The position numbers and the translations under genes are program-made. From Escherichia coli (GTDB taxonomy: Bacteria; Pseudomonadota; Gammaproteobacteria; Enterobacterales; Enterobacteriaceae): 64,000 nucleotides of DNA. The notes beneath the pieces are model-generated. The model was not told the DNA's origin and did not search any database. It was given only the letters and a program-made list of their open reading frames with translations. The stretch is from assembly GCF_022846255.1 (NCBI RefSeq), contig NZ_AP025682.1; one strand, given 5' to 3'. This document shows positions 59,154 to 61,730 of the stretch, piece after piece; positions within the stretch are counted from its first letter, which is position 1; every line of letters starts with the position of its first letter.

Positions 59154-60305
59154 ATGGCAGCTTCAACCTTTTTTATTCCTTCCGTGAATGTTATTGGTGC
59201 TGATTCATTGAATGATGCAATGAATATGATGGCAGATTATGGATTTACCCGTACCTTAATTGTCACCGACAACATGTTAACGAAATTGGGTATGGCGGGT
59301 GATGTGCAAAAAGCACTGGAAGAACGCAATATTTTTAGCGTTATTTATGATGGCACCCAACCTAACCCCACCACGGAAAACGTCGCTGCAGGTTTGAAAT
59401 TACTTAAAGAAAATAATTGCGATAGCGTGATTTCCTTAGGCGGTGGTTCTCCACACGACTGCGCAAAAGGTATTGCGCTGGTTGCAGCCAACGGCGGTGA
59501 CATCCGCGATTATGAAGGCGTTGACCGCTCTGCAAAACCGCAGCTGCCGATGATCGCCATCAACACCACGGCGGGTACGGCCTCTGAAATGACTCGTTTC
59601 TGCATCATCACTGACGAAGCGCGTCACATCAAAATGGCGATTGTGGATAAACATGTAACTCCGCTGCTTTCTGTCAATGACTCCTCTCTGATGATCGGTA
59701 TGCCGAAGTCACTGACCGCCGCAACGGGTATGGATGCCTTAACGTACGCTATCGAAGCGTATGTTTCTATTGCCGCCACGCCGATCACTGACGCTTGTGC
59801 ACTGAAAGCCGTGACCATGATTGCCGAAAACCTGCCGTTAGCCGTTGAAGATGGCAGCAATGCTAAAGCGCGTGAAGCAATGGCTTATGCCCAGTTCCTC
59901 GCCGGTATGGCGTTCAATAATGCTTCTCTGGGTTATGTTCATGCGATGGCGCACCAGCTGGGCGGTTTCTACAACCTGCCACACGGTGTATGTAACGCCG
60001 TTTTGCTGCCGCATGTTCAGGTATTCAACAGCAAAGTCGCCGCTGCACGTCTGCGTGATTGTGCCGCTGCAATGGGCGTGAACGTGACAGGTAAAAACGA
60101 CGCGGAAGGTGCTGAAGCCTGCATTAACGCCATCCGTGAACTGGCGAAGAAAGTGGATATCCCGGCAGGCCTACGCGACCTGAACGTGAAAGAAGAAGAT
60201 TTCGCGGTTCTGGCGACTAATGCCCTGAAAGATGCCTGCGGCTTTACTAACCCGATCCAGGCAACTCACGAAGAAATTGTGGCGATTTATCGCGCAGCGA
60301 TGTAA
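59154..60305 (+). CDS. yiaY: Iron-containing alcohol dehydrogenase YiaY
   Basis: 383-aa [54 protein letters not shown]... Confidence 0.9.
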
Positions 60306-60320
60306 TCATCATTTCCACAA

Positions 60321-60347
60321 CGGCTGGCGAGTTGTCAGCCGCTTTTT
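60321..60347 (+). terminator. Putative rho-independent terminator after yiaY (CGGCTG-N10-CAGCCG then CTTTTT)
   Basis: GC-rich inverted repeat plus T-run starting 16 nt after the yiaY stop. Confidence 0.5.
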
Positions 60348-60350
60348 CAA

Positions 60351-60429
60351 CTATCTCAAAACTTGCTTTTTTTGAGATAGTTTCTCTTTCCTGCTATACA
60401 CTATCTCAATATTGCGCTTTTTTGAGATA
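60351..60429. promoter_or_regulatory. Two related palindromes (CTATCTCAAAA-N7-TTTTGAGATAG and TATCTCAA-N12-TTGAGATA) 50 bp apart, immediately upstream of the Fic gene
   Basis: Palindromes at 60351-60379 (11-bp perfect arms) and 60402-60429 (8-bp perfect arms); the second ends 5 nt before the Fic ATG; operator role is inferred. Confidence 0.4.
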
Positions 60430-60434
60430 AGCAC

Positions 60435-61730
60435 ATGGCTATCAAATCACCTCCCGGACTTATTCCTTTATCACACTTATCGGGTGAGGAACTCCTGGCC
60501 CACCTGCGCTTTAACCGGGTTACCGATGAAAAAGGACGTTATCTGCCTTTTGATGAGTTGCAGTACCGCATCAAAAAAGGAGAAAACGTCGATGTGGCGT
60601 GGACGCTTACCCGTCTGGCGCGCAACGCGGCGATCCAACGAATTAATTATTGCAATGAAGCGGGTGAACAGGCCGGATTCAACATTACCCCGGTGATTGC
60701 AGAAGCGTGCGAGCTTGTCGACAAACGTGCTACCGCGCTGGCGCTGAAAGATCAGACTGAACGGTTACGCGGGGCCGGAGCCGAGTTAAGCCAGTTACGC
60801 CTGGAAGAGCCGATCACCAGCTCCCAGCTGGAAGGTGCGAATACTACAACGCTGGTGGCGAGAAAAATGCTGGAAACAGGGCGGTCGCCACGCACTGAAG
60901 ACGAGCATATGATTGCGGGAAATGCCCGGCTGATGGCGGAAATTCCGCACTTACTCGCAGAACCGCTGACACCTGCGCTTATTCGCCAGTTACATGCCAT
61001 TGGTATGGGTGGAATCAATGACGCGAAATATCGTCCGGGAGAATTTCGTGAAACAGATGATGTTGTGATCGCCGACTATGATGGCAATATAGTGCATCAA
61101 CCGCCCGCTGCGGCATTGTTACCGGAACGGCTGGAAAAAGTTTGCCAGTGGTTAAACAGCCATGAAGGGTATATTCATCCGTTGGTCCGTGCCTGCATTC
61201 TGCATTTTATGCTGGCCCATGAACATCCGTTTCGGGATGGCAACGGGCGCACCAGTCGGGCGCTGTTTTACTGGTATATGCTGAAATCGGGCTACGATGT
61301 CTTTAAATATATTTCCATCAGCCGTTTGCTTCATGCTGCACCGGTCAAATATGCCGCCAGCTACCAGTACACTGAATCAGATGGTATGGATCTGACTTAT
61401 TTCCTTGAATATCAGGCGGGTGTCATTAAACGTGCTCTGCAAAACTGGCAGCAGCATATCGATGAAATTACACAACGAAGCGCAAAACTCGATAGTGTGC
61501 TGTTTAGCTCTGGTGTGCTTAAACGCCTGAATCCGCGCCAGGTAACGCTCCTGAATGTGATGCTCGCCAATCCGGGGAAAGAGTACACAGTTGCTGAAAT
61601 TAGCGCGAGCCTGGGCGTCTCTGATAATACGGCTCGAGCTGATTTACGGACAATTGTTAAAGAAGGATTCGCGCAAGAGAAAAGAATTAATAACCAGCAA
61701 GCAGTGTACGTCGCACACTACCCGCTGTAG
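60435..61730 (+). CDS. Fic-domain protein (Fic core [14 protein letters not shown], upstream inhibitory-type motif SSQLEG, C-terminal winged-HTH-like region)
   Basis: 431-aa ORF; canonical HxFx(D/E)GNGRxxR Fic motif; a [S/T]xxxE[G/N] segment (TSSQLEGAN) N-terminal to it; C-terminal [36 protein letters not shown] looks like a wHTH. Confidence 0.8.

Follow-up and report, generated by a model that had tools for sequence, protein, structure and literature searches.

Two matching palindromes lie directly upstream of the fic gene in a 64-kb stretch of Escherichia coli DNA (contig NZ_AP025682.1; "the window" denotes this whole stretch). Both of them, designated O1 (distal) and O2 (proximal), are probably operators for the Fic protein encoded directly downstream, whose homodimers would occupy them and repress the fic promoter in a negative autoregulation. 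A Fic AMP-transferase can potentially kill the cell that makes it, and to our knowledge the safeguard of solitary class II Fic genes is known in one case only, that of CccR. The original prediction read the palindromes as a pair of operators of a dimeric regulator, which might be the winged helix-turn-helix (wHTH) of the Fic protein itself. Comparative data support this proposal through (i) sites that travel with fic at a fixed distance from the ATG; (ii) arms that are kept while the spacers drift; (iii) co-variation of the half-site with the recognition helix; (iv) overlap with the predicted promoter; (v) the precedent of CccR and SoFic. They suggest that self-repression via an own wHTH is widespread in this fic subfamily, in bacteria as well as archaea. 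Exact coordinates are now available for the putative operators of an uncharacterised Fic gene of ~29% of complete E. coli genomes, together with a testable residue-to-base specificity rule.

The paired palindromes upstream of fic

Two matching palindromes 50 bp apart before the Fic gene are present in the sequence as predicted, and they share the core TATCTCAA-N12-TTGAGATA. The second one was described correctly: TATCTCAA (60402-60409), a 12-nt spacer and TTGAGATA (60422-60429) are followed by 5 nt (AGCAC) and by the ATG at 60435. The first one exists as well, but the 7-nt spacer and the end at 60379 that had been assigned to it are wrong, as its arms CTATCTCAAAA (60351-60361) and TTTTGAGATAG (60370-60380) stand 8 nt apart and end at 60380. 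In the window allele the perfect complementarity of O1 reaches 13 nt per arm (AACTATCTCAAAA/TTTTGAGATAGTT) around an 8-nt centre. Aligned with each other, O1 and O2 form a 30-nt direct repeat with 80% identity, 50 bp from start to start.

The complete pattern TATCTCAA-N12-TTGAGATA occurs at these two places only in the window, and none of 100 dinucleotide-preserving shuffles contained any match. The octamer TATCTCAA alone was found eight times against 1.6 expected, four of the eight being the arms of O1 and O2. None of the other four (4928, 32196, 55514 and 63936) has an inverted partner at N12 in the window, and when the four operator arms are left out the octamer count is inside the shuffle range. 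Both copies of the palindrome are upstream of fic, and no further copy was found downstream of the gene.

Conservation of the sites across genomes

Close orthologs were fetched one by one with their encoding contigs. The close homologs (43-96% identity) belong to E. albertii, Pseudescherichia, enterobacterium RIT691, Pantoea, Salmonella (two lineages), Photorhabdus, Enterobacter, Kosakonia, Rahnella, Klebsiella, Xenorhabdus and Buttiauxella, and the neighbour genes differ at every locus except that of E. albertii; a metagenomic relative also has fic among other neighbours and keeps the sites. The orthologs at 43-76% identity are placed in at least 10 unrelated chromosomal contexts, with the half-sites kept and the spacer sequence free. 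The general form in the close homologs is yTATCTCAA-N12-TTGAGATAr, ending 3-10 nt ahead of the ATG; not all arms follow this consensus, and those of Xenorhabdus and Salmonella serovar Nigeria differ from it the most. Apart from its A/T richness the spacer is unconserved, and several of the loci have a second upstream copy.

The loci with asparagine at Fic residue 398 (class N, 26 loci) were searched for sites with at most two mismatches, which gave 32 sites in the 150 nt upstream of fic versus 2 in the remaining 174 kb of locus sequence. A proximal site was present in 17 of the 26 loci at this threshold, its core starting 23-34 nt before the ATG. The O1-O2 spacing, available as 11 intervals in 10 loci, amounts to 49 bp (twice), 50 bp (six times) or 51 bp (three times). 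Class N extends beyond the genera named above to Glaciecola, Alcanivorax, Halopseudomonas and Pseudomonas. The information content is high in the arms and in three flanking positions per side that lie outside the search pattern, and about zero in the middle of the spacer.

The same distribution is visible within the genus. Five fic-positive Escherichia alleles (the window, IMT16316, O157:H7, GmF052 and E. albertii) were compared over 60349-60434, and none of the 36 arm positions varies, versus 9 of the 50 positions elsewhere (Fisher p=0.009). The O1 centre alone has 4 substitutions among these alleles, between invariant arms. In E. coli the motif region was found at 1576 places in 1575 genomes, all of them at fic.

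Some loci depart from the two-site layout. Alcanivorax quisquiliarum (L015) has three operator-like sites in exact 50-bp phasing, 131, 81 and 31 nt before the fic ATG, which suggests that higher-order cooperative arrays may be possible. The Pseudomonas fluorescens group (L012, L014, L016, L018, L027) carries a proximal pair, GTACTCAA and TTGAGACAG, with a ~19-nt spacer that includes a small GC hairpin, and a TTTCAG-N12-TTGAG site upstream of this pair. In L019, L020, L032 and L057 the wHTH is truncated or divergent and the sites are degenerate.

Co-variation of the half-site and the recognition helix

Distant homologs were identified in gamma- and betaproteobacteria, Verrucomicrobia, Actinobacteria, Chlamydiae, methanogens and other archaea. 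Most of them have one or two palindromes near the start codon, the sequences of which differ from the E. coli motif. The co-variation of these sequences with the Fic protein was examined over 83 loci, using the residue aligned to N398 within the helix motif (S/Y)-X-T-A-R. The half-site core is CTCAA in 22 of 26 loci with asparagine at this position, CTAAT in 18 of 31 with glutamine, ATCAA in 8 of 12 with alanine or glycine, and CCAA in 4 of 5 with aspartate. Cross-class cases are rare: two class-Q loci with CCAA, one class-D locus with CTAAT and one class-G locus (L214) with CTCAA. Within class Q, a tyrosine at residue 397 goes with ACTAA (15 of 17), and other residues with GCTAA (8 of 14) or CCTAA.

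The rule is obeyed in 52 of 74 loci, whereas 10,000 permutations gave 17 on average and 31 at most, a comparison in which the rule was formulated on the same loci as tested and the sequences are related and thus non-independent. When ordered by similarity outside the wHTH, the residue classes are interleaved: the D-class L048 is nearest to the Q-class L022, and the archaeal D-class L067 to the A-class L066. This interleaving indicates that the specificity has switched repeatedly, with the sites switching along. Experiments aside, we see no stronger evidence at present than this co-variation for a reading of the palindromes by the Fic wHTH.

A recognition code is offered more tentatively, as a plausible extension rather than the expected outcome. 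Residues 398 and 397 might set two bases of the half-site (N with CTCAA, Q with CTAAT, A/G with ATCAA, D with CCAA, YQ with ACTAA and non-Y-Q with GCTAA), so that each Fic lineage, from E. coli to the methanogens, would be insulated from its paralogs by a private operator. If true, such a code would be usable to predict or re-programme the specificity.

Characteristics of the Fic protein

The catalytic Fic motif HxFx(D/E)GNGRxxR is present at residues 264-275 (nt 61224-61259), and H264, P265, F266, D268, G269, N270, G271, R272 and R275 are invariant among 22 homologs. The class II inhibitory motif (S/T)xxxE(G/N) is located on the same chain, N-terminal to the Fic core, as S129-S-Q-L-E133-G134 (nt 60819-60836), and it is invariant in the alignment. 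In a PDB sequence search the match to 7XUX starts at query residue 122 and chain residue 52, which places S129 opposite chain residue 59. The latter is the position of the CccR motif S59ARIEG (PMC9755527), and 7XUX is probably the structure of CccR.

The AlphaFold2 monomer model (predicted local distance difference test, pLDDT, 88; predicted template modelling score, pTM, 0.85) ends in a canonical wHTH composed of helices 367-378, 386-393 and 397-409 (recognition helix) and strands 413-417 and 423-427, which form a two-strand wing. Residue 398 is at the N-terminus of helix 3 in this model. Pfam HTH_DeoR, HTH_11 and IclR gave weak matches below the cut-offs in the wHTH, and a sequence search of the wHTH alone against the PDB returned only insignificant TFE matches. 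The top Foldseek matches of the model are CbFic2 (8CIL), Dde_2494 (4RGL), SoFic (3EQX/3ZCN) and 7XUX, over 350-364 columns at ~18-19% identity. The PADLOC SoFic defence model matches residues 96-427 (E=1.1e-43). The score against the curated NCBIfam SoFic equivalog NF046030 was 40.3 bits for a cut-off of 550, and since it is so far under the cut-off, the E. coli protein is assigned to a subfamily apart from that equivalog. On this sequence-based assignment E. coli Fic belongs to a distinct subfamily with an extra N-terminal region of ~65-90 residues.

Predicted promoter geometry and proposed mechanism

The promoter position was assigned through ortholog comparison, and the predicted -35 and -10/+1/ribosome-binding positions lie under the two sites, in agreement with the overlap that had been expected for this region. 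The predicted -35 is provided by the right arm of O1 (Table 1). The -10 candidates are TACACT (60397-60402), in the register of TATACT/TAAACT in the orthologs, or TATACA with an upstream TG (60392-60400; TGcTATACA). The predicted transcription start and the Shine-Dalgarno-like GAGA (60424-60427) both fall within O2. Several orthologs without O1 show a sigma-70 promoter on the proximal site, with TTGACT/TTGACG/TTGCCA, a distance of 16-18 nt and TAAACT/CATACT/TAAAAT, the last -10 bases overlapping the left arm of the site. At the O1-bearing loci the right arm TTGAGA occupies the -35 position.

The -10 region is polymorphic in E. coli: position 60399 is C in the window and in O157:H7 (TACACT) and T in the allele IMT16316 (TATACT), one of a 99.4%-identity group of genomes. 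As the better -10 candidate, TATACT predicts an allele-specific fic expression.

In the proposed mechanism, the Fic homodimer would set its two recognition helices on two TATCTCAA half-sites, which are 20 bp apart from centre to centre, a distance of ~68 A or roughly two turns of the helix. One dimer on O1 would cover the -35, and a second dimer on O2 would cover the -10, the transcription start and the ribosome-binding bases. With these elements occupied, RNA polymerase would be excluded and the potentially toxic enzyme held at a low, self-limiting level. The conserved 49-51 bp spacing between O1 and O2 may reflect the promoter geometry and possibly the cooperative binding of two dimers. For this circuit we infer that Fic dimerises and physically binds the sites, that the effect is repression and not activation, and where exactly transcription starts. 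A further possibility is that the operator occupancy also gates the AMP-transferase activity, coupling toxin dosage and activity in a one-gene toxin/repressor module.

Comparison with known systems

The closest functional precedent is CccR (YPK_0951) of Yersinia pseudotuberculosis, a class II Fic-HTH toxin that represses its own promoter via a footprinted palindrome, AGATAATCAT-N26-ATGATAATCT; the repression needs dimerisation, and the DNA-binding helices are 70.2 A apart in the dimer (PMC9755527). The half-site distance of ~68 A calculated for the E. coli sites is compatible with this value. Homodimerisation through the N-terminal helix, with the two wHTH domains ~70 A from each other, serves as a mark of the SoFic/CccR/CbFic2 group. 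Like E. coli Fic, CccR combines a C-terminal HTH/wHTH with a Fic domain whose inhibitory helix motif is on the N-terminal side, and is encoded by a solitary gene without a classic antitoxin. It binds as a dimer to a palindrome near the -35/-10 of its own promoter, and the palindromes described here lie over the predicted -35 and -10/+1/ribosome-binding site. There are also differences between the two. These relate to (i) the sequence, with ~18% identity and a similarity confined to the Fic core; (ii) the length, CccR having 380 aa and lacking the N-terminal extension of ~65-90 residues; (iii) the operator, formed in CccR from one pair of 10-bp boxes with 26 bp between them, and here from two full palindromes with 12-bp spacers, 50 bp apart; (iv) the function, as CccR is an effector of the type VI secretion system, whereas nothing at E. 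coli fic suggests secretion.

SoFic (SO_4266) of Shewanella oneidensis binds as dimers in the 100 bp immediately upstream of its own start codon (bioRxiv 10.64898/2026.07.09.737422). It shares with E. coli Fic the class II Fic plus wHTH architecture, the PADLOC model match and a structural template modelling (TM) score of about 0.6-0.7; it differs in subfamily, by the NF046030 score, and no operator motif has been defined for it. EcSofic, a toxic defence protein, is followed by the 47-aa antitoxin AS1 (PMC12249575), whereas no comparable small gene follows E. coli fic. The best structural match is CbFic2 of Coxiella burnetii (PDB 8CIL), in which the domain order is the same; its affinity for random DNA is high, and its enzymatic activity is raised by DNA (PMC10628234). 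The binding occurs through the wHTH of a dimer, but no specific operator or autoregulation has been shown for CbFic2.

Among unrelated systems, the wHTH antitoxin AbiEi of a type IV toxin-antitoxin pair performs cooperative negative autoregulation via paired inverted repeats in its promoter (Hampton et al. 2018, cited in PMC9755527; PMC3985639). It shares with the proposed fic circuit the working principle of a wHTH protein, paired inverted repeats and a toxin-encoding operon, but there the toxin and the DNA-binding antitoxin are two proteins, and AbiEi lacks a Fic domain and any homology to E. coli Fic. The principle of self-repression is thus established by CccR and by the own-promoter binding of SoFic, and the present locus would add a further, uncharacterised subfamily with a different operator layout. 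In the literature searched, neither a family-wide operator pattern nor a specificity rule was found.

Loss of fic in E. coli

Of 5426 complete E. coli genomes, 1572-1575 have the gene between yiaY and aldB, O157:H7 and ST131 strains among them. O1 stands at the exact left edge of the segment that is missing from fic-less E. coli. In BL21 (L001), E. coli C (L002) and the K-12-type genomes the yiaY-aldB spacer runs from TTTTTCAACTATCTC straight into TGTAAC. Here the first 9 nt of O1 (AACTATCTC, 60349-60357 in the window) are fused to the end of the fic open reading frame (ORF), CTGTAA, which reads CTGTAG (61725-61730) in the window. As the start of O1 is joined to the end of fic, the fic-less state is a deletion scar and not a virgin target. 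In E. albertii fic occupies the same locus and precedes aldB (93% identity), and the gene is probably ancestral in Escherichia. K-12 and BL21 are thus natural deletion mutants of the fic locus and convenient reporter hosts.

A third allele, found in ~575 of 5426 E. coli genomes, retains a lone orphan O1-like palindrome, followed by 8 nt and by TATCTC joined to TGTAA, and has no fic (L003 440-500; L218, L219). The right arm of this orphan O1 has decayed to TTGAGAGAG. In the GPEC1337-type (L003; 37 genomes at >=99% identity) the left arm is also changed, to CTCTCTCAA, which restores the symmetry; this second change may be due to chance or to a hairpin. Arm substitutions of this kind are expected once the binding protein is lost.

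Weighing of the proposed autoregulation and the alternative explanations

Several points weigh against the autoregulation by Fic. All support for Fic acting at the palindromes is comparative, and its structural relative CbFic2 binds DNA without clear sequence specificity (PMC10628234). The extra N-terminal region of ~65-90 residues, absent from SoFic and CccR, bears on the dimer geometry. A consensus promoter scan called no promoter in the operator region, and the promoter described above is a prediction for this reason; its -10 is non-canonical, with a register ambiguous by 2 nt. The residue-to-half-site rule is subject to the circularity and the relatedness given with its permutation result, and 22 of the 74 loci have no expected inverted pair within 120 nt, the causes including mis-set start codons in some and different layouts in others (e.g. 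the P. fluorescens group). Finally, symmetric changes of the arms fit a hairpin equally well.

The alternative that survives best, though we consider it unlikely, retains the binding of the Fic wHTH to the sites but makes the operator DNA mainly an allosteric or positional cofactor of the AMP-transferase, as in CbFic2, or the sensor of a SoFic-type anti-phage gene. The stimulation of CbFic2 by DNA (PMC10628234), the PADLOC SoFic defence match, the dimerisation-dependent toxicity of SoFic-type proteins (PMC12249575) and the frequent proximity of the homologs to toxin-antitoxin or Abi genes are in its favour. However, a cofactor needs no strict placement over the -35, the -10 and the ribosome-binding site before its own start codon, as seen in dozens of lineages, whereas a promoter-occlusion operator does, and repression via a palindrome was directly shown for CccR (PMC9755527). 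An allosteric role could coexist with the autorepression.

The genomic surroundings touch on the same question. In four loci the fic orthologs stand amid toxin-antitoxin or defence genes, as is often the case: AbiEi (L205), ParE/PhD and HicAB (L207), a second Fic-HTH gene (L213), and RES-Xre with a second DUF4172-Fic gene (L214). Such neighbours and the PADLOC match are consistent with a defence-island lifestyle.

It is quite improbable that the palindromes act as nucleic-acid hairpins, with O1 serving as a second terminator or insulator against yiaY read-through and O2 as an mRNA hairpin that sequesters the ribosome-binding site. O1 does pass a lax terminator scan (13 pairs, 3 GC, T-rich tail TCTCTTTCCT), the predicted RNA folds amount to -13.5 kcal/mol for O1, equal to the yiaY terminator, and -7.3 kcal/mol for O2, and some symmetric arm changes keep the pairing. 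Pair counts on the aligned sites do not separate a hairpin from a symmetric protein site and were treated as non-discriminating. Against the hairpins, the core arm sequence is conserved beyond pairing across orthologs at 43-76% identity, and one-sided changes that break the pairing are common (CTATCgCAA, CTAgCTCAA, TTGAGgTAG). Only the Escherichia allele of O1 has the 13-bp stem and the T-rich tail; in the orthologs the arms are short (9 bp) and AT-rich, the loops measure 12 nt and a T-run is absent. The left arm of O2 would remain mostly untranscribed because the -10 abuts O2, no Rfam match was obtained in 60200-60600 by an E-value-threshold search, and the change of the half-site along with the wHTH residue is left unexplained by hairpins.

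Still less probable is the binding of an unrelated host transcription factor that controls fic or the neighbouring aldB. In E. coli the sites are indeed situated between yiaY and aldB, with a regulated metabolic gene close by, but they follow fic into unrelated contexts and distant taxa without a common neighbouring regulator, their sequence tracks the recognition helix of Fic itself, and the E. coli motif region is found at fic only.

The original prediction had also considered remnants of an insertion event, and named a generic repeat at many unrelated loci as the finding that would speak against operators. That the palindromes are such remnants (att site, target duplication, recombination scar) or a dispersed repeat is the least credible reading: O1 marks the left edge of the missing segment and the two copies are direct repeats of each other, but both are on the same side of fic with none downstream, the empty state is a deletion scar, E. 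albertii has fic at the same locus, and each E. coli genome has the motif at one place, always at fic.

A reverse search scanned metagenome contigs for the exact 16-base pattern, and 80 loci were examined. Seventy of them were single sites with no Fic homolog nearby except for L156; this search is uninformative for single sites, whose heterogeneous flanks and spacers are those that chance predicts in a very large collection. The other 10 were 49-50-bp doublets, 9 of them beside fic.

The tenth doublet, from a human gut metagenome (L095 2835-2911), consists of two TATCTCAA-N12-TTGAGATA sites 49 bp apart, ~40 nt before a gene for a fosA-like glutathione transferase; the locus contains no Fic homolog, and L157 12315-12342 is listed alongside it. 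The L095 doublet looks like orphan fic operators left by a deletion, and the sites might now influence the expression of fosA.

Organization of the locus

The gene order around the palindromes is selA-selB-yiaY-[fic]-aldB, according to the ORFs of the window; the product of yiaY is an Fe-alcohol/threonine dehydrogenase. The 1.7-kb segment with fic is 100% identical to strain Z0117EC0036. The coordinates of the features are collected in Table 1.

Table 1. Putative operators, predicted promoter elements, gene and terminator at the fic locus of the window.
Feature	Position	Strand	Remarks
Distal operator O1 (putative)	60349..60382		core TATCTCAA-N12-TTGAGATA at 60352-60379
Proximal operator O2 (putative)	60400..60430		core TATCTCAA-N12-TTGAGATA at 60402-60429
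-35-like hexamer TTGAGA (predicted)	60372..60377	+	5/6 match to TTGACA; in O1 right arm
-10 region TGCTATACACT (predicted)	60392..60402	+	ortholog comparison; abuts/overlaps O2 left arm
fic, 431 aa, class II Fic with C-terminal wHTH	60435..61730	+	Pfam Fic E=5.7e-20; motifs; PADLOC; Foldseek
wHTH region, residues 365-431	61527..61727	+	AlphaFold2; recognition helix 397-409 (nt 61623-61661); N398 specificity-linked
Intrinsic terminator of yiaY	60321..60348	+	GC-rich hairpin and T-run; 9-pair stem, 6 GC pairs, tail CTTTTTCAAC

The yiaY terminator, with a predicted RNA fold of -13.5 kcal/mol, is located just upstream of the operator region and outside the operators, and it is also found in the fic-less genomes. 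A terminator-like hairpin on the minus strand (61695-61727; 15 pairs, 7 GC) lies within the 3' end of fic; viewed on the plus strand, this inverted repeat stands directly before the fic stop codon.

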